From contig CP084166.1 in the NCBI GenBank assembly GCA_021513695.1, positions 768,001 through 832,000 on the forward strand: a DNA stretch of 64,000 nucleotides, read 5' to 3'. Below the pieces are notes generated by a model that did not search any database, was not told the origin of the DNA, and worked only from the letters and a program-made list of their open reading frames with translations. Within the stretch, counting starts at the first letter, position 1, and the number at the start of each line of letters is the position of its first letter. Both the position numbers and the translations under genes were made by a program. Of the stretch, positions 1 through 45,587 are shown piece after piece. The DNA comes from Candidatus Heimdallarchaeum aukensis. GTDB taxonomy: Archaea; Asgardarchaeota; Heimdallarchaeia; Heimdallarchaeales; Heimdallarchaeaceae.

Positions 1-1071
1 AGTCGTATTATTGTATTTAGGATAGTTCAAATCCTCTTTTCTTATAATTCCATTTTCTATTAATTTTTCAACATCTGGTTTTATTTTTTTCAATTCAGAG
101 ATAAGATGCTTTACTGTTCTACAGACTTTAGCAAAACCTTCTTCTCCCCATAACTTTGTTTTGTTTGCAAAAAGACACCTTCCTCCACACAAATCATATA
201 CTTCACAACTTAAACAAGGTTCTTCTATCAATACAGAGTTTAGAACATCAGAAGGCTTATTCTCTTTAATGTTTCCTACCACTGAAAATTCATATTCTGG
301 AGGAAGAGGACAAACTGTTATAACTCCATCAGTTCTTACAGCAAAACTTGTTAATCCTGCTTGACATGGAAGAGAAGTTTTCTTATCGTTTAAAATATTC
401 CAAAAAATACCCAAAAAAGGAACTATTCCGAGAATTTTTCCTTTTTTCATCTCTTTTAACCAATAATTAACTAATTTCGATATACCATTATTGTAATTTA
501 TGATCCAACTATCCAGATCTTTCCACCTGGTGTGTTCTATATCATCCCATAAAACATCAAGTTGCCAATGAACATGGTTAAATCCTAACTCTTCATCATT
601 CAGTAAGAAATATACATCCCGAAAAATGTCTGCTGTTTCAGAAACTGCCATTCTTGCTATTAAATCTCCTTTAAATCCTTTTTCCCTTATAATCCTGATA
701 TTATCCTTTATTTTATCAAAAACTCCTTCTCCTCTGTTAGCATCTGTAATTTCCTTATCACCATCAATAGATATTAGAATTGTTGAAAATCGCAGTAAAT
801 ACTCTTTAGATAACTTGTTTAAAAGCCATCCGTTAGTCTGAATTGTGTAATGTTCCGCATGGATCTCATCCATTACTTCTTTAATCAGTTTTAGATTAAG
901 TAGTGGTTCTCCGCCATAAAAAGCTATAGTAGGATTAGGATCTTGAGAAATAAAATTCTTCAATTGTTTGATATCCCAGCTTGCATTAACTGGTAAATCG
1001 GGATGGGGTTCATTTTGGCAATATTGACAGTAGAAATTGCACCTATTTGTCGTTACTAAAAACCAGTTCAT
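1..1071 (-). CDS. radical SAM enzyme with SPASM-type C-terminal Cys cluster (C-terminus cut by window edge)
   Basis: Absent from the ORF track because it has no stop in the window. The minus-strand ATG at 1071..1069 opens MNWFLVTTNRCNFYCQYCQNEP (CxxxCxxC). GGEPLL follows, and CQAG..VCP and CLSCEVYDLCGGRC lie near the edge. The frame stays open to base 1. Confidence 0.8.
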   Translation of the reverse strand, partial: MNWFLVTTNRCNFYCQYCQNEPHPDLPVNASWDIKQLKNFISQDPNPTIAFYGGEPLLNLKLIKEVMDEIHAEHYTIQTNGWLLNKLSKEYLLRFSTILISIDGDKEITDANRGEGVFDKIKDNIRIIREKGFKGDLIARMAVSETADIFRDVYFLLNDEELGFNHVHWQLDVLWDDIEHTRWKDLDSWIINYNNGISKLVNYWLKEMKKGKILGIVPFLGIFWNILNDKKTSLPCQAGLTSFAVRTDGVITVCPLPPEYEFSVVGNIKENKPSDVLNSVLIEEPCLSCEVYDLCGGRCLFANKTKLWGEEGFAKVCRTVKHLISELKKIKPDVEKLIENGIIRKEDLNYPKYNNTT

Positions 1072-3405: not shown

Positions 3406-4782
3406 TCATTCTATAACTTTCTTTCTTTTAGCATATTGTATCAGCATTTTAATGGCATAAGCAGCTTCTCGTGGATTTAGAAATATGGGACTACTTTCTT
3501 TTTTGGCTATTCTCTTAGATTCATTTAACAAATTTCCACTCATGAATATGGGAATTATAGGTTTCTTTCTACCTGTTTCATTCCACGCTCTAATAACTCC
3601 TTCATAATGTTCTGATGTGGTCATTCCTAAAAATGTGGGTATTACTGCAATTGGAACAACAATATCAATGTTAGGATCTTCTAGCATTGCTTTAGTTACT
3701 TCATAGTACTCTTTTCCAGTTGCTCCTGCTATCATATCCAGAGGATTAACCTTTTTTACTAAAGGAATCAAAAAAGGATCAATTTTCTCTTTGAACTCTT
3801 CAGTAAATGTGGCTAGTTTTAGTCCGAAATCATCCGCAAAATCACTGAACATCACTGCACTTCCTCCACTATTTGTTAGTACTCCTATTTTTTCGCCTTT
3901 AGGAAGTGGAAGAAATGAAAAAGCTTTAATTGCAGCAATGTAATCTGTGATACTTTCACACATTATGGCTCCTGCTTGTTTAACTGCTGTTTTTAGAGAA
4001 CTATAGTCTGTAGCCATAGAACCTGTATGGCTTGAAGCTGCTCCCATTCCAGTAGCAGTTCTTCCTCCTTTAAGTACAACAACGGGTTTATCTTTTGCTA
4101 CTTCATGTAGTTCTTCATAAAATACTCTTCCATCAACAACATTTTCTAAATAAATAGTTACCACTTTTGTGTTTTCATCTTCCTTATAGAACCTTAAAAC
4201 ATCTGTTAAATTTATGTCTGCCATATTTCCTAAATTTGCAAATTTAGAGAATCCTAATCCTTGCCAAACCATTTCATACAAAACTATTGCCCCAACTGAA
4301 CCTGATTGTGTAATCATGCTTACATTTCCTTTAGGTGGGGTTTGAATGAATGATGCATTCATTCCTATATCTACATTTTGTATTCCTACACAGTTAGGTC
4401 CTATTAACCTTATTCCTGCATCTTTCAATTTTTGAGATAACTGTTCTTGCACTTTTCTTCCTTCTTCATTAATTTCTGCAAAACCAGCAGTTACGATAAT
4501 AATCCTCTTAACTTTTTTCTCTATACATTCATCGACAACATGAGGAACAATCTTTGCAGGAACAAGTAAAATCGCTAAATCGATCTCATCTGGTATTTCT
4601 AGTACAGACTTATATGCTTTTAATCCTCCAATAGTTTCAGCTTTAGGATGAACAGGACACAATTTTGCTTTCAGATCTTTATTCTCCATTAAGTTAGCTG
4701 TTACAGCATGTCCAAACTTTTTTTCATTATCTGTCGCACCAATAATTGCAATAGAATCTGGATAGAAAAACTTCCTAGTCAT
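3406..4782 (-). CDS. ADP-forming acetyl/acyl-CoA synthetase, alpha (CoA-binding/ligase-CoA) subunit
   Basis: FFYPDSIAIIGATDNEKKFGH, IIIVTAGFAEINEEGRK and RLIGPNCVGIQN are typical of the NDP-forming acyl-CoA synthetase alpha / succinyl-CoA synthetase-like fold. No ATP-grasp beta subunit is adjacent. Confidence 0.85.
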   Translation of the reverse strand: MTRKFFYPDSIAIIGATDNEKKFGHAVTANLMENKDLKAKLCPVHPKAETIGGLKAYKSVLEIPDEIDLAILLVPAKIVPHVVDECIEKKVKRIIIVTAGFAEINEEGRKVQEQLSQKLKDAGIRLIGPNCVGIQNVDIGMNASFIQTPPKGNVSMITQSGSVGAIVLYEMVWQGLGFSKFANLGNMADINLTDVLRFYKEDENTKVVTIYLENVVDGRVFYEELHEVAKDKPVVVLKGGRTATGMGAASSHTGSMATDYSSLKTAVKQAGAIMCESITDYIAAIKAFSFLPLPKGEKIGVLTNSGGSAVMFSDFADDFGLKLATFTEEFKEKIDPFLIPLVKKVNPLDMIAGATGKEYYEVTKAMLEDPNIDIVVPIAVIPTFLGMTTSEHYEGVIRAWNETGRKKPIIPIFMSGNLLNESKRIAKKESSPIFLNPREAAYAIKMLIQYAKRKKVIE

Positions 4783-4872
4783 TGTTCTTTTTAGAAATTG
4801 TGTCCTTTTAATTTTTTCTTATTGAACTAAAAAAAGAGTGAAAAAGAGTTTTCAAAATATTAAGACGATTTT

Positions 4873-5835
4873 TTATTGGTTTATATATCCGTGCTCAATT
4901 ACACACTTATCAGCGTCTAGATTTAAAACACTTATAGTATACTTTTTGATGTCATCATAACTTGTACTCGTCTTATCTATAAGATCAGCGAGAATATCAA
5001 GCAACCTCCTAGCTTCCTCGTGACTTTCATCAGTTTTTATTACCAATCCAAAGATATGAGATTGTGAAGAACGGAGAATGAATTTATAGTCTTTAGACAT
5101 GATAAACTGAATAATATTTTGTTCATTGAAAGTTTTTTTTGCAAAAGTTTGTATAGCTGAGAGAAAACCAGAATAGAGAGATATTTTATCTGAAAGTTTT
5201 TTCTTTGAGATACTTAAAATTGGCAATCCATCTCTATCTGCAAGTAAAAAAGACTCAGGAGTAACTTTTCTTTTTTGAATAAGTTTAGATAACTGATTTT
5301 GTAACCAATATAGGACAGAATCAAAATTTTCTCCAGTTTGCATGCTTATCTTAAAAAATTGAAAAGAGGCATTTGGAATCATAGCGAGATTATATATTTC
5401 CACGGTATTGATAATTTCTTCCAGGTTCATACTATTTTCTAAATCTGCTTTGTTACACAGAAATAGAATTAGAAACTCATCTCCGTTATCTTTTAACTTT
5501 ATTGACTTCCAAAATTCTTCTTTTGCTTCAAGTAATGATTCTCTATCTGAAGAATCAATGATAAAAATTATCCCATAAGCTAACTTAATGTAATTTTCCC
5601 AGATAGTCTTTCTAAAAACTTCTTGTCCCCCTAAATCAAAAATATTTACTTTTAGATCAAATAGTTCATATTGTTCTAACTGAACCCCCATAGTTGGTTT
5701 AGGACTAGTGAATTTTCCTGTGAGAATTCTGTTAACAAAAGTAGTTTTTCCAGCATTAGGTAAACCTAAAATTACTAAAGGAATTCCTTTTTTCTCAAAA
5801 GAAAGTAGTTTTTCAGATATTTTCTTCTTACTCAA
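4873..5835 (-). CDS. Arf/Arl-like small GTPase fused to a C-terminal roadblock/longin-like domain
   Basis: G1 is GLPNAGKTT, G3 is DLGGQ, the Arf-like interswitch is WENYIKLAYGIIFIIDSSDRESLLEAKEEF, and G4 is NKAD. The C-terminal ~130 aa (FLLADRDGLPILSIS..SGFLSAIQTF..HIFGLVIKTD) fit a roadblock pattern. TTG start. Confidence 0.8.
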   Translation of the reverse strand: MSKKKISEKLLSFEKKGIPLVILGLPNAGKTTFVNRILTGKFTSPKPTMGVQLEQYELFDLKVNIFDLGGQEVFRKTIWENYIKLAYGIIFIIDSSDRESLLEAKEEFWKSIKLKDNGDEFLILFLCNKADLENSMNLEEIINTVEIYNLAMIPNASFQFFKISMQTGENFDSVLYWLQNQLSKLIQKRKVTPESFLLADRDGLPILSISKKKLSDKISLYSGFLSAIQTFAKKTFNEQNIIQFIMSKDYKFILRSSQSHIFGLVIKTDESHEEARRLLDILADLIDKTSTSYDDIKKYTISVLNLDADKCVIEHGYINQ

Positions 5836-31142: not shown

Positions 31143-32327
31143 TTACAACTTTCTATTTTTTCTTGATAATTGAACTATTTTTTTTATTACTACAAATTCT
31201 GTTTCATTTAGGACGTTTTTTGTGATTTTTATTTTTTCTTGCTGAATTCTTACTTGGTTTGCATATTCATTCTCAACTAATAGCTCCATCTCCTCTGTTA
31301 TCGCTCCATCTACATTTGTTTTAATAACTTCCATGAGGTTATTATATTTTTCTAGTATTTTTTCATAAACAGCTAATTTTGAAGAGAATTTTGATGTATA
31401 CTTATTTATTTCTTCAGCTCGTTTAATGTCTATAGAAGTTAAACTATCAGTAGCTTCAGATAAATCTCTTAATTCTTCTTCACTAAATTCTCTTTTAACA
31501 AAACTTGAAATTATAGAAATAAGTGATTTATCCAGCAAATAATCTGTTTTTCTCTCATAGCTTATACTAGGGATTGATTTTGATAGAGAAGATTTTTTAC
31601 TTTTGAAGGTAGTATCTTTTTTTTCTGTTGTTAAATACTTTTCAACAAGAACTAATTTTTCATTCCACCATTCCTTAAAAGAAAGACCAGGAGTATATTC
31701 AATAGCAAAATTTAGAAAAATTGTTCCTTTAGCTAAAACTGTTGCGCCTATAGGTTTTTTGAATATGGGTTTACTTGTTCTTTTACCTACAAAGTCATAT
31801 GTACTAAAAGAATGAAAGTTTGAGGGAAGATCTTTTGCTTTACCAAAAAAAATTATTTCTTTTCCAAGATTTGCTAAATCTTTGAGATCTCCTAAAGTTA
31901 CTAAATAATCTTCTCCTAACGAAAGATAAACAAGATCATAAGTTTTTTTGGATAATTTTCTAACAGATTCTGGAATAGCTAATTTTTCTGCTCTTTCTTT
32001 TATTGCTTTTTTTGATAAGCCTGAAAAAGTGCACTCATAAGGAGGAAGAAGTTCATTCTCATTAACTAATCCAAAACCTGCAGAAATAATGTAATAATCA
32101 ACTTCAGCTTTTGACGAAAGAATCTTAACAGCTTTTTTTATTGCAAGAGCTTGTCCACCTATGTATAATTCTCCTGCTTCTCTTAATAATGAAGAAAATT
32201 TTTCTTTTGCACTTTCTCTTTGATCTTTTGTTTCTAGGTCCTTACATGTTGGTTGATCATCATGTTGTACAGACTTTTTCTTTCCACAAGAGTTAATAAC
32301 AAGTATTGAAGGTTTCAGAGATCTCAC
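31143..32327 (-). CDS. DUF6884-like N-terminal domain fused to a long coiled-coil
   Basis: ILVINSCGKKKS, ELYIGGQA and YYIISAGFGLVNENELLPPYECTF match my recollection of the DUF6884 pattern (SC.k.K .. LY .. ilSA..GL..p...l.PYd). The C-terminal ~170 aa are heptad-rich. Confidence 0.45.
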   Translation of the reverse strand: MRSLKPSILVINSCGKKKSVQHDDQPTCKDLETKDQRESAKEKFSSLLREAGELYIGGQALAIKKAVKILSSKAEVDYYIISAGFGLVNENELLPPYECTFSGLSKKAIKERAEKLAIPESVRKLSKKTYDLVYLSLGEDYLVTLGDLKDLANLGKEIIFFGKAKDLPSNFHSFSTYDFVGKRTSKPIFKKPIGATVLAKGTIFLNFAIEYTPGLSFKEWWNEKLVLVEKYLTTEKKDTTFKSKKSSLSKSIPSISYERKTDYLLDKSLISIISSFVKREFSEEELRDLSEATDSLTSIDIKRAEEINKYTSKFSSKLAVYEKILEKYNNLMEVIKTNVDGAITEEMELLVENEYANQVRIQQEKIKITKNVLNETEFVVIKKIVQLSRKNRKL

Positions 32328-32333
32328 CTAAAG

Positions 32334-32753
32334 CTATTCAGTATCCTTTTTTGCCAAATATCGATTATAAAATCTTTTAATTTTCTTTTTTTCGAGATCA
32401 AAATCTAGATCTTTACTATTTTTGCCTTCTTGCCTTTCCATTTTATTGAGTTTACTTTGAATTTTGCTTAGTTTTAGAGCAAGCATTGAATTTCTTCTAA
32501 AAAGTTCACTGTTTTCAAAAAACAAAACCCCATATGCTTTTCTAAGTTTACTATACTTTATTGTTAATTCATTATATCGTTCTCTTAATTCTTCAAGATT
32601 CTTAAGTAGACTAACCTCATCAATTTGTAAATCCTCGCTGTTTAATGCCAGAAAATCATAATAATCAAGGAGTGTGTTAATTATATCATCAGTATATTCA
32701 GTAACATCTTCAAAAATAGCAGGAATCTTGACATTAGTGATCATTTTCTTCAT
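32334..32753 (-). CDS. coiled-coil protein
   Basis: 139 aa, helical and charged. Its start overlaps the upstream stop by 4 nt, and a 6-nt gap separates it from the downstream gene. Confidence 0.5.
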   Translation of the reverse strand: MKKMITNVKIPAIFEDVTEYTDDIINTLLDYYDFLALNSEDLQIDEVSLLKNLEELRERYNELTIKYSKLRKAYGVLFFENSELFRRNSMLALKLSKIQSKLNKMERQEGKNSKDLDFDLEKKKIKRFYNRYLAKKDTE

Positions 32754-33106
32754 TTTGCTACACCTTTTAGAATACCATCTAACTTCTCTTCAAGTTCAGT
32801 AATAACATTATAATCTTCATTATATTCTTTCTTCATTTGTTTTTCTTCTTCTATACTTTTTTTCAATTTTTCAATTTCTTTTTCTCTTTCTGGAATTTTC
32901 TCCAAAAGAGCCTTATATTCTAGTATATACTCCACAAATGCCCAAGAAAGCTTTTTTTCTTTGTTATATTCTGTAAGAAACTTAAAAAATTGGTTTACTT
33001 TTTCTATTATTGTTTCAGATTTTTCCTTTCTCTCTTCAGCGATTCTAGCAATTTTTCGCTGAATTCTTGAGGAAAAAGAAATCTTTACTTTCTCTTGTTT
33101 TTTCAT
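32750..33106 (-). CDS. possible ribbon-helix-helix DNA-binding domain plus coiled-coil
   Basis: The N-terminus KVKISFSSRIQRKIARIAEERKEKSETIIEKV fits the strand-helix-helix of CopG/Arc-type RHH. The remainder is coiled-coil. First gene of the minus-strand trio. Confidence 0.4.
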   Translation of the reverse strand: MKKQEKVKISFSSRIQRKIARIAEERKEKSETIIEKVNQFFKFLTEYNKEKKLSWAFVEYILEYKALLEKIPEREKEIEKLKKSIEEEKQMKKEYNEDYNVITELEEKLDGILKGVAK

Positions 33107-33678: not shown

Positions 33679-35265
33679 TTGATGAGATTTGTTTTATTTT
33701 CTGATACCCATATTGGTGGAAGATATGATGAAATGATATTGATGAAAGGTATAGATTTTATTAATAACATTGATGGAGATATTTTTATTCACTGTGGAGA
33801 TTTAACTGGTTCTGGCACTTTGGCTGAATATGAGATTGCTAGACTTTATTTAGAAAAAATCAAGAAAAGGCCTTTTTTCATTGTTCCTGGAAATCATGAC
33901 TGCAAAAATGTGGGTGATTTACTTTTTGAAGAAATAGTTGGTGAGCGTTTTTGGGTAAAGACATTCGAAAAAAAGAAAACTCGGATTCTTGGTCTTGACT
34001 CTACTGAACCCGATGCAAATACTGGAAGAATGGGTCCTAAATCAATAAAAAGAATTTATGAAGAATTTGAGGATTTACCAGAATATTGGTTAAAAGTTTT
34101 AGTTTTTCATCATCAGACTTTACCAATTCCCTATACTGGTAGAGAAAGAAGTGCAATCAAAGATGCAGGAGATGTAGTGAAAGCTATTCTTGATTGTAAC
34201 ATTCATCTTGTTTTCAATGGTCATAGGCACATTTCTAATGTCTATAAGATGTCTGATGGAGTAGTAAATGCTTGGATTATTAATGTTGGTACATTATCTT
34301 GTAAAAAAACTAGATATAGAGAAGAGTATAGCTTAACTGTCGTTGATGCTTCTTTAAAGAAAAACAACCTTGCTATTCGTAGTATACTACTTAAGAAAGA
34401 GCCTATCAGAGAAGTTGTAAAATATTCTGGTAAATTCCAACGTTTTATTGCCCCTATGAATAAGAAACACATAGCAACAATAATTCAAATAGGCAATACA
34501 GCTTTTTCTAATTCACGATTTAGGATGGGTAATTTCTACAAAGGTCTCGAAACAATTAATCTCATCCCTTGTGATGTAGTTGTCCATTGTGGAGAAGTTA
34601 CAGGTGCCTCCTATGTCAATGAGTTTCAAAGAGCAAAGGCTTTATTATCTCAAATAGAAAAACCTCTTATTGTTGTTCCAGGAGATAATGATGCTTTTCC
34701 ACTTGGTTGGGATTTGTTTCCTGAGTACATTGGTGATCCTAACCCCTATTTTGAGAATGAGCATTTGATTGTTAAAGGGTTCAATACTTGCTTAATTGAC
34801 GAACAAGAGGGAAGACTCGGAAGAGGAAATATGAAAGAGATGATAACAACATTTGAGAATAAATCAAAAATAGGAGTAGTAGCTTTTCATCATTCAATAA
34901 TGCCTTTACCTCACTCTAAACATGATGCAGAGCTAATAGATGCAGGAGATGTTCTTGCTGCCATAGTAAACCACAGAATCAATCTCGTTTTAACTGGAGC
35001 TAAAAATAGAAGCGGGTGTTGGCAAGTTAACGACACTGTATTTGTAAATGCTGGAACACTCAGCTCTGAAAATATTACTACAAGAGACGGAAATAGTTTC
35101 AACATAATAACCATTAGCCAAACAGATATAGGTAAACTTTACGAGGTCGATGAGTATTTTGTTGAAACAAACGAAAGAAAAACTATTGGAGTTTTCCATA
35201 TTTCTGATAGGGGGATACCTATTCTCATTCCTGATAGAAAGGTTCCCAACACCATTCATTTATGA
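33679..35265 (+). CDS. tandem calcineurin-like metallophosphoesterase: intact N-domain plus degenerate C-domain
   Basis: Domain 1 has FSDTHIG, CGDLTGSG, PGNHD, FHHQ and NGHRH. Domain 2 has IGNTAFS, CGEVTGAS, PGDNDAF, FHHS and TGAKNRS at the same positions, so most metal ligands are lost. Confidence 0.8.
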   Translation: MMRFVLFSDTHIGGRYDEMILMKGIDFINNIDGDIFIHCGDLTGSGTLAEYEIARLYLEKIKKRPFFIVPGNHDCKNVGDLLFEEIVGERFWVKTFEKKKTRILGLDSTEPDANTGRMGPKSIKRIYEEFEDLPEYWLKVLVFHHQTLPIPYTGRERSAIKDAGDVVKAILDCNIHLVFNGHRHISNVYKMSDGVVNAWIINVGTLSCKKTRYREEYSLTVVDASLKKNNLAIRSILLKKEPIREVVKYSGKFQRFIAPMNKKHIATIIQIGNTAFSNSRFRMGNFYKGLETINLIPCDVVVHCGEVTGASYVNEFQRAKALLSQIEKPLIVVPGDNDAFPLGWDLFPEYIGDPNPYFENEHLIVKGFNTCLIDEQEGRLGRGNMKEMITTFENKSKIGVVAFHHSIMPLPHSKHDAELIDAGDVLAAIVNHRINLVLTGAKNRSGCWQVNDTVFVNAGTLSSENITTRDGNSFNIITISQTDIGKLYEVDEYFVETNERKTIGVFHISDRGIPILIPDRKVPNTIHL

Positions 35266-35343
35266 TATAACTTAGATATTTAACTAGTTATATCGATAGA
35301 TATTGTAAAAAAATTTAAATCTAAATAATGAAGTGTACACCTT

Positions 35344-36627
35344 ATGCACAAAGAGGTAAAAAATTCAAAAAACGTTTCTTTTCCAGTTGTAATAAAAAAT
35401 TTAGATGAGAGAATGAATAAATGGTTGAAAGAAGCACAGAAACGTATATTTAGTATTGCTGCAGGAGATAGGATTTCATTCATAGCTTCTGCCATAGCAC
35501 AAGTTGGTTTTGGCAAAATCCTCTATGCTGCAAATGAACTTGGGGTTGATATTGAAAAAACCAAACCATACATTTTTTTTGCTCCTGACGGAACTTGCTC
35601 ATACAACGAAATTAGAATAAAAAGAGGTTTTACATATGGTTGTATATTCAAAGCAGATTTCGAGGGACTGATTGGTACTAATAACTCAATGCCAAACGGT
35701 TGTGGATATAGCTTATATGAACTTAAAGATTGGAACGATGATGAAACTCTAATCAGAACTTTAAACCAAATAAAGCAAAATATAACAGAAGAACAAGCAA
35801 AAGAACTAGGAAAAGGCAATCATTTTATTGCTGTTTACAAGGTTTTAGACGCTATATCAGGAGAAGATACAGAAAGGAGAATGGTATTACTTCATTGTAG
35901 TGGGCATGATTTAAGCAAAAAACCACTTTATTTCTTCAACTGGTTAGAAGAAACAGATGGATGTCATAAAGTACAAACACCACATGGAGAAATTTACCTT
36001 TTAGAAAGTGAGGCAAAAAAGAGATATATCAAAGAATTTGAGAAACTTGACAAACACAATAAAGAAGCTCGTGTCACTGTCATGAAAGAGTTGTTTAGAG
36101 ACTCTTCCTATGAATTAATTTCAAGTATCACTCACCAAGGGTTATATAATAACGGTTCATATCATTTTTTGGGAATACAAAAAAGCGAAAAACTTATTCC
36201 TATAGCTTTCAATGCAGATGAAGGAGGAATTGCTGTCAAGACAAAGAAGAATCTGTCAGGACAATTTATAGATCAATGGAAACAAGGAACAAGAGTGAAA
36301 GATTTAGGATATGAAAGAGAATTTAAAGAGCTCAACTTTACTCCACACGGAGGAGGATACGAATTCAAATACCCAATCAAACGTTTTGTTATATTCTTAA
36401 ATGATCAAGGACTGGATCACTTCTCGGTTGAATTAAAAAAGCCGAAAGAGCCAAGTATTAAACTTATTGCTTCCTATTTCAAACCTATTAGAGAATACAT
36501 GACATATAGGAGAAAGTTACCAGTAATGAAAGAAGTCTTTAAAGCGGAGCTAGCAAACCACATTTATGATCTTGTTCCATTTATGCAATTACATCCTAAA
36601 GTTAGTATTCCTGGAGGACATTACTAA
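35344..36627 (+). CDS. hypothetical protein with RtcB-like motif series (possible divergent RNA ligase)
   Basis: Ordered motifs MPNGCGYS, LGKGNHFIAVYKV, VLLHCSGHD and FTPHGGGYE resemble RtcB PD.H.G.G, G.GNHF.E, HSGSRG and HGAGR. The spacing differs from canonical RtcB. Confidence 0.3.
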   Translation: MHKEVKNSKNVSFPVVIKNLDERMNKWLKEAQKRIFSIAAGDRISFIASAIAQVGFGKILYAANELGVDIEKTKPYIFFAPDGTCSYNEIRIKRGFTYGCIFKADFEGLIGTNNSMPNGCGYSLYELKDWNDDETLIRTLNQIKQNITEEQAKELGKGNHFIAVYKVLDAISGEDTERRMVLLHCSGHDLSKKPLYFFNWLEETDGCHKVQTPHGEIYLLESEAKKRYIKEFEKLDKHNKEARVTVMKELFRDSSYELISSITHQGLYNNGSYHFLGIQKSEKLIPIAFNADEGGIAVKTKKNLSGQFIDQWKQGTRVKDLGYEREFKELNFTPHGGGYEFKYPIKRFVIFLNDQGLDHFSVELKKPKEPSIKLIASYFKPIREYMTYRRKLPVMKEVFKAELANHIYDLVPFMQLHPKVSIPGGHY

Positions 36628-36651: not shown

Positions 36652-37395
36652 ATGCATTCTAACCCTTACATTATAGCTCATCGGGGTTTTTCTTCTAAAT
36701 ACCCCGAAAATACTATTCTAGCGATTAACAGGTCAGTAGGAATAGCAGATATTGTTGAATTTGATGTTCAACTTACAAAAGATAGGTATGTAGTTTTATT
36801 TCATGATGAAACAACAAAAAGGATTTTCCCAGAAATCGAGGAGAAGAGAATCCAAGACTTATATTATCATGAACTAAAAGAATTAAATGCTGGTAAATGG
36901 TTTTCATCAAAAATAGAAAAACAAACTATTCCCAAACTCGAGGAAGTAGTAGAAAAGATAAACAACAAAATCTCAATGATTATTGAATTAAAGAACAAGG
37001 GAAATAAAGAAAAAAAAGAAGAACTAGCTACTATAGTATTGAATATCCTAGATGACAACAATGTCTCTTTAAACAAAGGGTATCTTTCAGTTCGAGACTT
37101 AGAAATGCTTGAAATTATTAACTCTCTTTCTTCAAAATACAGAATTGGATTAATGCAGAAAACGAGAACACCGGAAGAATTTATAGAACTAGTTAAAAGT
37201 AACAATCTTGAATTTGCTCAAATAAGATGGAAGAATTGGACTGAGAGTAATTGGCAAGAACTTTTGTCTTTAGAAACTAAAATTACTGCTTTTTATGCTG
37301 ATGAAGAAAAAGAATACAATTTTTTAATTGAAAAACAAGTTTATGGAATTTTCACTAATTTTCCAGATAGATTAAGAAAACTGCTGAACATGTAG
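36652..37395 (+). CDS. glycerophosphodiester phosphodiesterase
   Basis: IIAHRGFSSKYPENT, EFDVQLTKDRYVVLFHDET. Confidence 0.85.
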   Translation: MHSNPYIIAHRGFSSKYPENTILAINRSVGIADIVEFDVQLTKDRYVVLFHDETTKRIFPEIEEKRIQDLYYHELKELNAGKWFSSKIEKQTIPKLEEVVEKINNKISMIIELKNKGNKEKKEELATIVLNILDDNNVSLNKGYLSVRDLEMLEIINSLSSKYRIGLMQKTRTPEEFIELVKSNNLEFAQIRWKNWTESNWQELLSLETKITAFYADEEKEYNFLIEKQVYGIFTNFPDRLRKLLNM

Positions 37396-38242: not shown

Positions 38243-38788
38243 GTGATACAGAGGAACTACAAAATAATACTTATTGGAAATGCTCTTGTTGGAAAAACTG
38301 CTATTGTAACACGTTTTGCTAAAGATTACTTTGAACAGAACTATTTGAGAACGCTAGGAATCAATTACTACATAAAGACACAAGTAATTACTAATGTAGA
38401 AGTAAAGATGATTATTACAGACACCGCAGGACAAGAAGCGTTTCAACGCCTAAGAAGTTCGTATTACAAGGGGGCAAGAGGAGCAATAATTGTTTATGCA
38501 ATAAATGACAGACATAGCTTTGGACAAGTTGATTATTGGAAGAATGAAATGTTCAAGACTTTAAAAGAAATCCCAATAATAATTGTCGGAAATAAAATTG
38601 ACTTAATCGATCAAAGAAGAATATCAACAAGTGAAGGACGCTTGTTAGCGAAAAAATTGGGTTGTTTATTTATTGAATCATCTGCTAAAACAGGAGAAAA
38701 TATTGATAAAATCTTTGAAATGATAGTTAAAGATATACTAAGAAAAGATAATTTAATAACAGAAGAAAAAGAAGAAAGTTCTACTTAA
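38243..38788 (+). CDS. Rab-like small GTPase
   Basis: G1 is GNALVGKT, G3 is DTAGQE, then YYKGARGAIIVY, G4 is GNKIDL and G5 is SAKTGEN. There is no C-terminal Cys, so no prenylation motif. Confidence 0.85.
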   Translation: MIQRNYKIILIGNALVGKTAIVTRFAKDYFEQNYLRTLGINYYIKTQVITNVEVKMIITDTAGQEAFQRLRSSYYKGARGAIIVYAINDRHSFGQVDYWKNEMFKTLKEIPIIIVGNKIDLIDQRRISTSEGRLLAKKLGCLFIESSAKTGENIDKIFEMIVKDILRKDNLITEEKEESST

Positions 38789-38918: not shown

Positions 38919-39683
38919 ATGCTAGAAAGAGTTTTTTTTATTTATTACCAGTATATCTTTTTATCTTTAGGTATAGTAACTTTTTTTCTATTACTTAGAA
39001 TTACAGCTCCTTATGGGAAACATTTTTCAGAAAAATTTGGTCCTTCAATTAAAGGTTCTTGGGCTTGGTTGATTATGGAATCACCAGCAGCAATTACGAC
39101 TACGATTCTATTCTTACTTTCGCTAAAAGAACTATCACTAGTTCCTGTGCTTTTGGTTTGCATTTTTTGTATTCACTACTACCCTAGAGATTTTATTTAC
39201 CCTTTTTGGGCTAGAAGAGAAGCAAAAACACCTTTGATTATTATGTTCTCTGCTATATTCTTTAATATTAGCAATGCTTATCTTCAGACTAGATGGTTAC
39301 TCAAATTCGCTCCTGAAGATAAGTATACTATTAGTTGGCTTTATAGTCCCCAATTTATTGTTGGAAGTTTACTATTTATTTTAGGATTTATATTTAATCG
39401 AAAAGCTGAATTCTCATTAAGAAAACTAAGAAAGAAAGGAGAAAGTAGTTACAAAATACCCTATGGGGGAATGTTTGAGCTTATATCTTGTCCTAACTAC
39501 TTCTTTGAAATTATTGAATGGATAGGTTGGGCAATAATAACTTGGTCAATTCCAGGGCTTGTATTTATGATTTGGACTATAGCTAATCTTGGCCCAAGAG
39601 CAGTTAGCACGCATAACTGGTATAAAAATAACTTTCCAAATTATCCAAAATCAAGAAAAGCTCTTATTCCATTTGTTTTTTGA
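38919..39683 (+). CDS. SRD5A-like steroid-5-alpha-reductase / polyprenol reductase family protein, paralog 2
   Basis: APYGKH, HYYPRDFIYPF, YKIPYGGMFELISCPNYFFEIIEWIGWAIITWSIPGLVF, THNWYKNNFPNYPKSRKALIPFVF. Collinear with the 19716..20537 product. Confidence 0.85.
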   Translation: MLERVFFIYYQYIFLSLGIVTFFLLLRITAPYGKHFSEKFGPSIKGSWAWLIMESPAAITTTILFLLSLKELSLVPVLLVCIFCIHYYPRDFIYPFWARREAKTPLIIMFSAIFFNISNAYLQTRWLLKFAPEDKYTISWLYSPQFIVGSLLFILGFIFNRKAEFSLRKLRKKGESSYKIPYGGMFELISCPNYFFEIIEWIGWAIITWSIPGLVFMIWTIANLGPRAVSTHNWYKNNFPNYPKSRKALIPFVF

Positions 39684-41126: not shown

Positions 41127-41441
41127 TTAGTAGATACTTTCTCTCATCCATTCAATATATTCATCGGAGGCATACTTTATAGGTAAAGCTATAATCTCTG
41201 GGATTTCATATGTATGATGTTTCTTTAATTCTTCAACAATATCATGGAATTTATCAGAAAAAGTTTTAGCAATAACTAAATACTCTTCTGCCTTCTCAAT
41301 CTTCCCTTTCCACCAATATTTTGAGTGTATTTTCGAAATTTGAACACAGACTACAAGCTTTTCTTCTAGAAGAAAATTACTTATCCTTTCTGCTTCTTCT
41401 TTGCTATCAATACTTACATGCAAATGTATTGGTTCATTCAT
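41127..41441 (-). CDS. cutA: divalent-cation tolerance protein CutA
   Basis: KLVVCVQISKIHSKYWWKGKIEKAEEYLVIAKT and HHTYEIPEIIALP match the CutA1 pattern. Confidence 0.85.
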   Translation of the reverse strand: MNEPIHLHVSIDSKEEAERISNFLLEEKLVVCVQISKIHSKYWWKGKIEKAEEYLVIAKTFSDKFHDIVEELKKHHTYEIPEIIALPIKYASDEYIEWMRESIY

Positions 41442-44243: not shown

Positions 44244-45587
44244 ATGTTTTGGCAAACAATTCTAGATATGATCTATAATGGATGGTTAAGTTTACTCGAT
44301 TACCTTTCATTTCATGTGCTCCTTTGTTTAATACCCGCTTTCTTTATTGCAGGAGCTATGATGGTGTTTGTGCCTAAAAATGCAATCTTAAAATATTTAG
44401 GGAAAGACTCGAAGAAAATTGTCTCGTATCCAGTAGCTGCAATTGCAGGTTTACTCATTGCAGTATGCTCTTGTACTGTTCTCCCCCTATTTGCAAGCAT
44501 AAAGAAAAAGGGAGCAGGATTAGGTCCAGCTATAACTTTTCTTTTTTCAGCTCCAGCTGTTAATATTCTAGCTCTGGTTTATACAGGAAGTATAATTGGA
44601 GCAGATATTGCCATAGCAAGGGCAATTTTGTCTTTATTATTTGCTATAATAATTGGATATATAATGGAGTTAATATTTGATAGGAAAAAACCAGAGAAAA
44701 AGAAAGGAAAAGAAGAAAAAAATCAAGAAATTGATCAACAAAAAGAAAGGAAAGAAGAAAAGAAAAAGCTCACAGTCAACTGGAGCAAACTAGGAACAAT
44801 TAGTCTGGGCGTTTTCGGATTATTATTAGGTATTCTTCTTTTAACTCTTGATAAGAAATTATTAGATTCAATGGGAATAGCTTCTCCGCTTATTTTTCAA
44901 ACAATAATGTGGATTATAGGGTTGGCTAGTTTAATTATTTTTTCTTTAATATACAATCAAAAAGAACTCTCTCTATTCTTTCTATTAATATACGTATTAT
45001 TTACTGGTACATCTCAAATAGCCTACTTTTCAGCCTATTGGGGAATTGGAAATTTGACTGTTAATCCATCTTTTCTTAACATGTTAACGAAAGCTCTTTT
45101 AACACTTATTGCAACCATTTATGTAGTTATTTTCACAATTTCAAGATTCGATAAAGAAGAAAGAAGAGAATGGATGAAGGAAACTTGGTCATTCTTTAAA
45201 TCGATCTTTCCTCTGATTGTTATTGGAGTTTTCGTTGCAGGAATGTTAGAGGTAATTATCCCTGAAAAATGGGTTCAATCAGTTGTTGGGAGGAATAGTG
45301 TCGTTGGAAACCTAACGGGTGTTCTTTTTGGAGTATTCATGTATTTTCCAACATTAATGGAGGTACCTATTGCTAGAATGTTTCTCAATTTAGGGATGTC
45401 AAGAGGTGTGCTTCTTGCTTATCTACTTGCAGACCCTGAATTGAGTATTCAATCTATTTTGGTTACTCGAAAATATTTAGGCAACAAGAAAAATTTTATA
45501 TTTGTGCTTTTAGTTACGATCTTCTGTACCATTGCTGGACTGATTTTCGGTCTTGTAGTTAGTAAAGAAAGTATAAAATGGTATTAA
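44244..45587 (+). CDS. predicted permease (ArsP/YraQ-type, PF03773-like) with a Lys/Glu-rich loop
   Basis: Polytopic protein. LIAVCSCTVLPLFASIKKKGAGLGPAITFLFSAPAVNILAL is typical of this permease family. The central loop is KKPEKKKGKEEKNQEIDQQKERKEEKKK. Confidence 0.7.
   Translation: MFWQTILDMIYNGWLSLLDYLSFHVLLCLIPAFFIAGAMMVFVPKNAILKYLGKDSKKIVSYPVAAIAGLLIAVCSCTVLPLFASIKKKGAGLGPAITFLFSAPAVNILALVYTGSIIGADIAIARAILSLLFAIIIGYIMELIFDRKKPEKKKGKEEKNQEIDQQKERKEEKKKLTVNWSKLGTISLGVFGLLLGILLLTLDKKLLDSMGIASPLIFQTIMWIIGLASLIIFSLIYNQKELSLFFLLIYVLFTGTSQIAYFSAYWGIGNLTVNPSFLNMLTKALLTLIATIYVVIFTISRFDKEERREWMKETWSFFKSIFPLIVIGVFVAGMLEVIIPEKWVQSVVGRNSVVGNLTGVLFGVFMYFPTLMEVPIARMFLNLGMSRGVLLAYLLADPELSIQSILVTRKYLGNKKNFIFVLLVTIFCTIAGLIFGLVVSKESIKWY

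Follow-up and report, generated by a model that had tools for sequence, protein, structure and literature searches.

Judging from its predicted structure and from profile comparisons, a 427-amino-acid protein encoded by Candidatus Heimdallarchaeum aukensis is very probably a genuine, though very remote, enzyme of the RtcB superfamily whose catalytic core is intact. Its gene lies in a 64-kb stretch of contig CP084166.1 (hereafter the window), between two phosphodiesterase genes on the same strand (Table 1). Our overall reading, to which we give a probability of roughly 0.45, is that a catalytically competent, divergent RtcB-superfamily enzyme and these phosphodiesterases form a module that opens and seals RNA ends. 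To our knowledge, RtcB is the only enzyme class that seals 3′-phosphate ends, its fold is unique, and its single job so far is the joining of RNA ends, or of DNA ends in vitro. The family described here would be a second branch of that fold, in which the metal and histidine core is kept, the nucleotide contacts and partner proteins have changed, and the genes have repeatedly been wired to phosphodiesterases of the GDPD, metallophosphoesterase (MPE) and HD classes.

The evidence for this relationship comes from structure and from profiles. The AF2 model of the protein (pLDDT 90.9, pTM 0.90) has the RtcB fold, and the best five matches that Foldseek returned for it were all RtcB (E 1e-8 to 6e-6). 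Alignment of the family with a canonical RtcB alignment (E. coli rtcB, PDB alignments and six phage RtcBs) using hhalign gave a probability of 94% in local mode (E 1.3e-7) and of 97% in global mode (E 2e-10), and unrelated, reversed and shuffled controls reached at most 1.1%. Searches based on sequence were insignificant: PF01139 scored 10.9 bits (E 0.27), below its gathering score of 27; a scan of the protein with NCBIfam gave no match; and phmmer and hmmsearch runs against the PDB returned no RtcB. Weak Pfam RtcB matches were obtained for 21 of the 43 family members, with a best E value of 1.8e-4, and none reached the cut-off. The relationship became visible only through structure prediction and profile–profile comparison. 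When all ORFs of more than 40 loci were scanned with a canonical RtcB HMM, it matched the RtcB-like ORFs only.

The initial annotation had singled out this ORF on the strength of four short motifs, which it took to echo the metal and GMP-histidine sites of RtcB. All four are present in the order it gave, and in the profile–profile alignment they fall on equivalent positions: GKGNHF corresponds to GxGNHF of RtcB and LHCSGH to HSGSRG (both with a metal-binding His), PHGGGYE to xHGAGR or SHGAGR (the nucleophilic His) and, in the global alignment, PNGCG to DIGCG (the metal-binding Cys). FAPDGT and THQG are two more conserved motifs, which that annotation had overlooked.

Table 1 Features of the RtcB-like locus (nucleotide positions within the window; residues of the RtcB-like protein; for motifs, the hhalign mode that aligns them with RtcB)
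Feature	Nucleotides	Residues	Strand	Remarks
MPE2, tandem metallophosphoesterase	33679..35265		+	528 aa; Pfam Metallophos 6e-19
Spacer between MPE2 and RtcB-like gene	35266..35343		+	78 nt, AT-rich
RtcB-like gene (subject of this study)	35344..36627		+	ATG start, 427 aa, stop included; predicted divergent RtcB-superfamily protein
FAPDGT motif	35578..35595	79-84	+	global
MPNGCGYS motif	35689..35712	116-123	+	global only
GKGNHFIAVY motif	35809..35838	156-165	+	local, 94% probability
LHCSGH motif	35890..35907	183-188	+	local
THQG motif	36130..36141	263-266	+	local
PHGGGYE motif	36343..36363	334-340	+	local
MTYRRK motif	36499..36516		+	local
GDPD-family phosphodiesterase	36652..37395		+	247 aa; Pfam GDPD 7e-31; 24 nt downstream of RtcB-like gene

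Residue by residue, local hhalign pairs N159-H160-F161 with N167-H168-F169 of E. coli RtcB (N202-H203-F204 in P. horikoshii), H184 with H185 (H234) and H264 with H281 (H329), so that each of the three metal-ligand histidines of the P. horikoshii enzyme (H203, H234 and H329) has a counterpart in the profile alignment. H335 pairs with E. coli H337 (P. horikoshii H404), the His that carries the covalent GMP. In the global alignment only, C120-G121 falls on E. coli C78-G79 (P. horikoshii C98); global hhalign also places P81-D82 on the MPDxH motif (E. coli P47-D48, P. horikoshii D65), which suggests that C120 and D82 are the equivalents of these RtcB sites. The residues of the RtcB two-metal site (the Cys, three His and the Asn) and the nucleotidylated His thus appear to be strictly kept.

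These positions are also those that the family conserves. Among 43 homologues with 26-68% identity to the protein, no variation was seen at P81, D82, N118, C120, G121, G158-N159-H160-F161, H184, S186, G187, P334-H335-G336 or G338-Y339-E340; because the motifs are kept in homologues so dissimilar, they are not a product of chance. In the wider family alignment of 106 sequences, H160, H184, H264 and H335 are each present in all 106, N159, F161 and P334 in 104, G338 in 103, C120 in 101, D82 in 95 and N118 in 92. Position 388, which aligns with the Tyr of the RtcB AYK motif (E. coli Y380), is Tyr or Phe in 92/106, and R389, which aligns with K381, is found in 96/106.

Compared with RtcB (PF01139; E. 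coli, P. horikoshii PH1602, T. thermophilus TTHA1785 and human RTCB), the Cys, NHF, HxSG, H and HGxG elements come in the same order and an aromatic residue is kept at the guanine-stacking Tyr position, whereas identity is about 13%, under every curated sequence threshold, and the spacing from Cys to NHF is about 40 residues rather than 90-105. Several catalytic-site residues also differ. P117 takes the place of the metal-ligand Asp in the D-x-x-C-G loop (P. horikoshii D95), with the invariant N118 beside it and one residue out of register with that Asp, and T84 replaces the MPDxH His (P. horikoshii His67). In PhoRtcB structures, GTP is contacted by Glu206, Lys480 and Arg408 and through stacking with Phe204 and Tyr451. 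The two stacking positions are kept as F161 and Y388; the guanine-reading Glu206 is replaced by A163 (Ala or Gly across the Heimdall clade), Arg408 (E. coli Arg341) by Y339 in the Heimdall clade, and Lys480 by Tyr or His in the same clade (71/106 sequences of the wider family have Lys or Arg there). H188 stands in place of E. coli Arg189, and the basic residues R189, K299, R341 and R345 of the E. coli enzyme are all absent. Because the Asp, His, Glu, Arg and Lys of RtcB are replaced, neither the use of GTP nor the complete three-step ligation is assured, and specificity for NTPs is probably altered in the Heimdall clade, where the Glu, Arg and Lys contacts to GTP have been replaced. We consider it likely that RtcB-type His-NMP chemistry has been kept.

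The upstream neighbour is a calcineurin-type phosphoesterase, as initially annotated, and the gap that separates it from the RtcB-like gene is exactly 78 nt. This protein, MPE2 (for which a gene caller run on an identical contig sets the start one codon later, giving 527 aa), has an N-terminal domain in which the five metal-binding motifs of PF00149 are intact and without variation. It groups with GpdQ and Rv0805, not with Pnkp, and its best match in both structure and sequence is the glycerophosphodiesterase GpdQ. It differs from the GpdQ, Rv0805 and Lmo2642 class-III phosphodiesterases in having two MPE domains, the second being a conserved but degenerate Metallophos copy that has lost its metal ligands; this tandem architecture occurs mainly in Asgard archaea and a few bacteria. 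Rv0805-class MPEs hydrolyse 2′,3′-cNMP. A generic MPE match (PDC-S10) was all that PADLOC reported for MPE2, and it found no defence-system match for the RtcB-like or GDPD proteins.

The downstream gene, which the initial annotation had overlooked, is the tightest partner. It scores 108.6 bits against PF03009 (cut-off 23.6), its protein matches GDPD structures in the PDB down to 3e-18, and the catalytic motifs HRG, ENT, E..D and HD are kept in 21 orthologues. It is thus of the standard cytoplasmic UgpQ/GlpQ type, except that here it is translationally or tightly coupled to a gene for an RtcB-fold protein, a coupling that we did not find reported in the literature. The GDPD enzymes we know of have glycerophosphodiesters or lysolipids as substrates, and none is known to us to attack nucleic acids.

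In Heimdallarchaeia the three genes form a co-directional cassette in the order MPE2, RtcB-like gene, GDPD, and this linkage persists between divergent genomes. Across 30 non-redundant loci, a GDPD gene lies within 6 kb of the RtcB-like gene in 17 (mostly directly downstream or overlapping its stop codon), MPE2 in 15 and both in 13. All of these linked loci belong to the 20-group clade closest to the RtcB-like protein (at least 47% identity), and the misses within that clade are mostly contigs without enough flanking sequence. Gaps in the syntenic loci measure 13-96 nt, or stop and start codons overlap. The GDPD gene follows immediately, or overlaps, in about 15 lineages; within Heimdallarchaeia no partner is more conserved. 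In a Lokiarchaeal locus, to which MPE2 alone had led us, the order is MPE2, HD, RtcB-like gene. Relatives of the Loki type and those in bacteria have an HD phosphohydrolase (YedJ/YpgQ type) in place of GDPD; among about 73 metagenomic loci from the Loki-type subfamily, 23 have it next to the RtcB-like gene and in the same orientation. We hold with good confidence that the RtcB-like protein and the neighbouring phosphodiesterases are a functional unit.

The initial annotation had gone further and proposed an RNA heal-and-seal pair. Its pairing of phosphoesterase and RtcB-like protein stands, given the MPE2 linkage and the Lokiarchaeal locus. The analogy with Pnkp-type repair carries over only in part: a Pfam scan of all ORFs found no kinase, classical ligase, Hen1, RtcA, RtcR or archease within about 5 kb. 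As in Pnkp–Hen1 and HD-Pnk systems, an MPE gene (HD in the relatives) adjoins the gene for a polynucleotide-ligase-type enzyme, and in bacterial RNA repair enzymes the healing of 2′,3′-phosphate ends is the work of these two domain types, MPE and HD. Unlike those systems, the cassette has no 5′-kinase, P-loop kinase, ATP-dependent ligase domain or Hen1 methyltransferase, the phosphoesterase being the sole Pnkp–Hen1 component present, and its sealing enzyme would be of the RtcB kind, for which the 3′-phosphate is needed rather than removed. Since RtcB chemistry needs that phosphate, a Pnkp-style 3′-phosphatase would destroy the substrate, not prepare it. The partners also differ from those in RtcB operons of the RtcB–archease or RtcBA/RtcR kind; PrfH, too, is not nearby.

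We propose instead an open-and-seal arrangement. In an NTP- and metal-dependent reaction, as in RtcB, the enzyme would form a covalent His335–NMP and hand the NMP to a terminal phosphate monoester, and attack by a hydroxyl would then yield a phosphodiester. GDPD, class-III phosphodiesterases of the GpdQ-type MPE group and HD proteins are classes able to open phosphodiesters or five-membered cyclic phosphates, and the partner phosphohydrolases would most likely make or trim the phosphate end for the RtcB-like enzyme. Canonical RtcB opens the cyclic phosphate itself. The RtcB-like protein thus probably joins or activates phosphate ends, its putative substrate. That this substrate is RNA or another polynucleotide we put slightly short of an even bet, with RNA 3′-phosphate or 2′,3′-cyclic-phosphate ends as the favoured form, and we favour a specialised repair or processing role, apart from that of the housekeeping tRNA-splicing RtcB. 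Our preference for RNA ends over a non-nucleic-acid phosphoester is narrow. Counting against RNA ends are the antagonism that a 3′-phosphate-removing phosphatase would bring to RtcB chemistry, the absence of any tRNA or Rfam RNA from the window, and a set of associations (the GDPD partner, the GpdQ-like MPE2, the DegV and Steroid_dh neighbours and a fusion to an APH kinase) that bear on the strongest alternative. Heimdallarchaeia are the archaeal lineage closest to eukaryotes; if the enzyme does seal RNA, the cassette would give this lineage a novel archaeal module for repairing or processing RNA.

According to that alternative, which we regard as somewhat unlikely, RtcB-type chemistry acts on a non-nucleic-acid phosphoester, and the enzyme works with GDPD and the GpdQ-like protein in the turnover or remodelling of glycerophosphodiesters. 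The acceptor of the NMP would be a small phosphomonoester or the product of opening a 1,2-cyclic phosphate (for example glycerol phosphate, a lyso-lipid or another polyol phosphate), and the NDP-activated product would then be released or coupled to an alcohol. A glycerol phosphodiester carries a vicinal hydroxyl and is chemically like the RNA backbone; the tightest partner is a GDPD with intact catalytic motifs; and the protein lacks the basic residues of RtcB named above. The match of MPE2 to GpdQ points the same way, although the promiscuity of GpdQ and Rv0805-class enzymes means that the substrate cannot be read from it. DegV, which binds fatty acids, and a steroid-reductase/PEMT-like (Steroid_dh) membrane protein recur near paralogues, but in a few lineages only. 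A distant family member, P0239, is fused to an APH-type small-molecule kinase within a radical-SAM/aminotransferase/SDR/HAD cluster of small-molecule biosynthetic character. On the other side, subfamilies elsewhere in the family swap GDPD for a YedJ/YpgQ-type HD protein, a class tied to nucleotides, and no RtcB-fold enzyme is known for substrates other than polynucleotide ends. Every RtcB enzyme characterised so far has RNA or DNA ends as its substrate (PMC5829648 and references therein). If glycerophospho-type esters were the substrate, RtcB chemistry would reach beyond nucleic acids, and we see a minority chance that this is the first RtcB-fold enzyme to do so, as an NTP-dependent His-NMP activator or ligase of polyol or glycerol phosphate or of cyclic phosphate esters. 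Heimdallarchaeia would then have a soluble phosphodiester-remodelling pathway with GDPD and a GpdQ-like phosphodiesterase, and the relative fused to an APH kinase would use this chemistry within a pathway of natural-product-like character. Either way, the operon encodes three soluble proteins, and H335A and C120A are clear point mutants for biochemistry.

It is distinctly improbable that the protein has kept the RtcB metal site but acts purely as a hydrolase or nucleotidyl-transferase, either a cyclic phosphodiesterase or an NMP-capping enzyme that performs RtcB steps 1-2 without sealing, for example in a phosphate-ester salvage pathway with two phosphodiesterases. The RtcB residues for GTP and for the incoming 5′-OH strand are indeed replaced, and the conserved partners are all hydrolases; but His335, invariant within PHGxG, would be needless for simple hydrolysis, and three hydrolases in a single operon would be redundant.

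We give very little credence to a fast-evolving housekeeping tRNA/rRNA splicing ligase that has replaced canonical RtcB. The RtcB fold and catalytic histidines would suit such a role, and the canonical RtcB HMM found no canonical RtcB in the window or the related loci, which lack an archease as well, but the window is about 2% of a 3-Mb genome, so that absence says little. For the source genome as a whole the sole evidence is indirect: when circularised and near-complete archaeal genomes were searched with PF01139, every one had a canonical RtcB (PMC12918454; their lineages are unspecified here). In the supplementary material to the Heimdallarchaeum paper and to Eme et al., neither RtcB nor archease is mentioned. 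The family is moreover patchy, with two paralogues in some Heimdall genomes and a narrow, lineage-specific operon context, and the GTP-binding residues are not kept. An inactive pseudo-enzyme or scaffold whose motifs are an evolutionary relic is just as implausible: the protein lacks the metal-ligand Asp and several contacts to GTP or phosphate, and MPE2 already has one degenerate domain, but the catalytic centre's four His, Cys and Asn hardly vary over about 100 clusters that share only 20-50% identity, which is the mark of selection on catalysis.

The RtcB-like family is an undescribed second, deeply divergent branch of the RtcB fold. It comprises about 250 sequence clusters from Asgard archaea, Altiarchaeales and some bacteria, and we found neither a model for it in Pfam or NCBIfam nor any publication on it. 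For distant members in Altiarchaeales, Myxococcota and Promethearchaeota, the neighbouring genes gave no useful information. Paralogous pairs occur on CP070695.1 (L033/L034) and in GCA_026702845.1 (L001/L002). What looked like an ABC ATPase gene next to those of the second paralogue clade proved to be a clustering artefact, in which ZnuC of a Znu transporter (L030) and ABCE1 (L041) had been mixed in one cluster; its identification as a Pst phosphate transporter was wrong.

The 427-aa ORF, the order of its four motifs and the 78-nt gap after a calcineurin-like phosphoesterase gene (MPE2) are as the initial annotation described, according to the ORF listing, motif positions and coordinates (see table). 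Kinship with RtcB is barely visible from sequence alone: the Pfam RtcB model gave 10.9 bits (E 0.27), short of the cut-off of 27, the NCBIfam search found no match, and neither the single protein nor a 43-sequence profile retrieved RtcB from PDB sequences. Four independent lines settle the relationship. An AlphaFold2 model from 43 homologues (pLDDT 90.9, pTM 0.90) has a predicted RtcB fold, and its best five Foldseek matches in the PDB are all RtcB (E 1e-8 to 6e-6), comprising human RTCB, T. thermophilus TTHA1785 and P. horikoshii RtcB. With hhalign, the family profile matched a canonical RtcB alignment (E. coli rtcB, PDB sequences and six phage RtcBs) at 94% probability in local mode (E 1.3e-7) and 97% in global mode (E 2e-10), against at most 1.1% for unrelated, reversed and column-shuffled controls. 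When every ORF from the window and from 40 related loci was scanned with a canonical RtcB HMM, only RtcB-like genes matched (22 matches, E 8e-6 to 0.03), and sub-threshold Pfam RtcB matches occur in 21 of 43 family members. The quoted motifs appear to fall on equivalent RtcB positions, and their unusual spacing is reflected in a Cys-to-NHF interval of 40 residues, versus 90 in E. coli RtcB.

Features of the window, the RtcB-like protein and related loci; RtcB equivalences are alignment-based throughout, including the Cys/Asp loop
Feature	Position	E. coli RtcB	P. horikoshii RtcB	Remarks
DUF6884 gene	31143-32327 (-)			394 aa
Small ORF	32334-32753			no family match
Small ORF	32750-33106			no family match
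MPE2	33679-35265 (+)			528 aa
MPE2 domain 2	34470-35265			residues ~265-528
RtcB-like gene	35344-36627 (+)			427 aa, ATG start
MPNGCGYS	residues 116-123
GKGNHFIAVY	residues 156-165
LHCSGH	residues 183-188
PHGGGYE	residues 334-340
Putative active site	P81-D82	P47-D48	D65	global alignment only
Putative active site	G99	G58		global alignment only
Putative active site	C120-G121	C78-G79	C98 (C120 only)	global alignment only
Putative active site	N159-H160-F161	N167-H168-F169	N202-H203-F204	local alignment
Putative active site	H184	H185	H234	local alignment
Putative active site	H264	H281	H329	local alignment; THQG, overlooked by the initial annotation
Putative active site	H335	H337	H404	local alignment
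Putative active site	Y388	Y380		local alignment
GDPD	36652-37395 (+)
Small GTPase	38243-38788 (+)			Pfam Ras 6.7e-53
Steroid-dehydrogenase-family protein	38919-39683 (+)			Pfam E 2.7e-55
CutA1	41127-41441 (-)
ArsP-type permease	44244-45587 (+)
Lokiarchaeal cassette	L053, 6001-9441
Kinase-fused member P0239	L048, 8001-10232			743 aa
TetR and DksA/TraR examples	L109, 116-748; L078, 535-1035
Split RtcB-like gene	L031, ~3785-5090			206 + 169 aa
Paralogue beside metal transporter	L029/L030, 4949-9726

Across 106 family sequences (20–50% identical), H160, H184, H264 and H335 are invariant, and N159 and F161 (each 104/106), C120 (101/106) and D82 (95/106) nearly so, forming a conserved putative catalytic constellation; H335 aligns with P. 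horikoshii H404, the GMP-carrying histidine. Other positions are predicted to differ. Pro117, adjoined by the invariant Asn118, would replace the metal-ligand Asp (P. horikoshii D95), Ala or Gly the guanine-reading Glu206, Thr84 His67 and Tyr339 Arg408, and the C-terminal Lys480 appears as Tyr or His in the Heimdall clade, with Lys or Arg in 71 of the 106 sequences of the wider family.

A word-indexed search returned 88 homologues, almost all from MAGs of Heimdallarchaeota, Kariarchaeaceae and Hodarchaeales and nearly all annotated as hypothetical protein; the sole member that NCBI names RtcB family protein is a non-cassette copy (in L002). An HMM search run exhaustively over 1.84 billion representatives gave 248 clusters at E ≤ 1e-3, mostly of 360–415 aa, with named members from Altiarchaeales, Myxococcota, Promethearchaeota and Hermod- and Odinarchaeota. 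A Pfam scan assigned no domain to any of these members, and literature searches uncovered no account of this family or of an association between RtcB and glycerophosphodiesterases. These data identify an undescribed, deeply divergent RtcB-fold branch in which the catalytic core appears intact, the nucleotide contacts are altered and the conserved partners, phosphodiesterases, are new, a real finding that exceeds routine annotation in interest.

Clustering of the ORFs from 39 loci (30 groups once those at 90% identity are merged) revealed a conserved co-directional operon in the order MPE2, RtcB-like gene, GDPD. Within 6 kb of the RtcB-like gene, GDPD occurs in 17 of the 30 groups (in most cases beginning 13–94 nt after that gene or overlapping its stop codon), MPE2 in 15 and both in 13. 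All partner-bearing groups fall in a 20-group clade sharing 47% identity or more with the window protein, in which the misses are mostly contigs with too short a flank. Neither partner accompanies the second paralogue clade (at most 46% identity), whose seeming ABC ATPase neighbour was rejected as a clustering artefact mixing ZnuC and ABCE1. Some Heimdall genomes hold two paralogues: in GCA_026702845.1 one lies within the cassette (L001) and one outside (L002), and in CP070695.1 the cassette surrounds neither (L033, L034). The gene at L031, from a Heimdall MAG, is split in two ORFs within an otherwise intact cassette, and is either a frameshift, a pseudogene or an assembly error. At L029/L030 the genes just upstream of one paralogue encode a ZnuA/ZnuC/ZnuB-type metal ABC transporter, and the locus also holds genes for a ZIP transporter and a xylose-isomerase-like TIM-barrel protein; an Altiarchaeales member (L049) is followed by an AP_endonuc_2 TIM barrel.

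Outside Heimdallarchaeia, MPE2 homologues led to a Lokiarchaeal locus (L053) in which MPE2 precedes a 194-aa YedJ/YpgQ-like HD phosphohydrolase, in the slot held by GDPD in Heimdallarchaeia, and a 403-aa family member. The gene after this cassette (458 aa) has only faint ATP-grasp-like matches. A metagenome scan with the Loki-type subfamily gave 80 loci, with MPE2 in five and GDPD in none; in 23 of the ~73 flank-bearing loci the immediate same-strand neighbour is an HD gene. In ~20 bacterial-looking metagenomic loci (within L071–L116), a same-strand pair of TetR and DksA/TraR zinc-finger genes precedes the RtcB-like gene. GDPD, MPE or HD neighbours thus make a recurring theme of an RtcB-like enzyme beside a metal-dependent phosphohydrolase. 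The distant member P0239 fuses an N-terminal APH/choline-kinase-type phosphotransferase to the RtcB-like domain, among two radical-SAM enzymes, an aminotransferase, a short-chain dehydrogenase and HAD hydrolases; this fusion and gene cluster suggest small-molecule chemistry for at least P0239.

GDPD keeps its motifs intact and is otherwise a standard member of its family. In MPE2, two metallophosphoesterase domains stand in tandem: domain 1 keeps every metal-binding motif invariant, whereas domain 2 shows GNT, GDND and GAKN where DxH, GNHD and GHxH would be expected; though degenerate, domain 2 is conserved across 38 homologues and is probably a pseudo-enzyme domain for binding or scaffolding. 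The profile match of MPE2 to PDB 4j6o, which we take to be a Pnkp phosphatase entry, is weak (E 0.02). For the heal-and-seal pair put forward by the initial annotation, the general notion that a phosphoesterase works with an RtcB-like sealing enzyme gains support from their conserved linkage; the Pnkp analogy fails in detail, because the cassette has no kinase, Hen1 or ATP-ligase, MPE2 is not of the Pnkp class, and the group that RtcB requires would be stripped by a 3'-phosphatase.

We infer that the enzyme retains RtcB-type chemistry: His335-NMP would form, the terminal phosphate would be activated and a hydroxyl would attack it, with the partner phosphohydrolases producing or trimming the phosphate or cyclic-phosphate end, a step that canonical RtcB handles itself. 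RNA or polynucleotide ends, on which to our knowledge every characterised RtcB acts, are our leading candidate substrate (probability roughly 0.45); the presence of MPE and HD agrees with this, as bacterial RNA repair relies on these domain types to heal 2',3' ends. Several features point instead to a small, non-nucleic-acid phosphoester, which we consider somewhat less likely: GDPD is translationally coupled, MPE2 resembles GpdQ, DegV and Steroid_dh/PEMT genes lie nearby in a few loci, one member carries an APH fusion within a small-molecule cluster, and basic RtcB residues are lost. That the protein acts only as a hydrolase or capping enzyme seems improbable. Neither canonical RtcB nor archease was found in the window or fetched loci, and one study (PMC12918454) reports PF01139 RtcB in every circularised or near-complete archaeal genome that it examined, a set that may not cover Heimdallarchaeia; replacement of the housekeeping ligase is therefore unlikely, and we give that role very little credence. 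The conservation pattern, as aligned, is that expected of a working catalytic centre, and a pseudo-enzyme is highly improbable.

The window (~30% G+C) shares its gene order with the complete Candidatus Heimdallarchaeum endolithica PR6 genome (CP084167.1), with 94% identity at the RtcB-like gene. Upstream, the DUF6884 protein (N-terminal domain, E 1.2e-7) has a long coiled-coil-like C terminus and is followed by the two small ORFs. Downstream lies a Ras/Rab-type small GTPase, a class typical of Asgard archaea, with another near the L002 paralogue. The 3-oxo-5-alpha-steroid 4-dehydrogenase (SRD5A/polyprenol-reductase) family membrane protein recurs near paralogues in L002 and L043, there with DegV. 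The CutA1 divalent-ion tolerance protein and the ArsP-type permease have no relation to the cassette and are unremarkable as neighbours.
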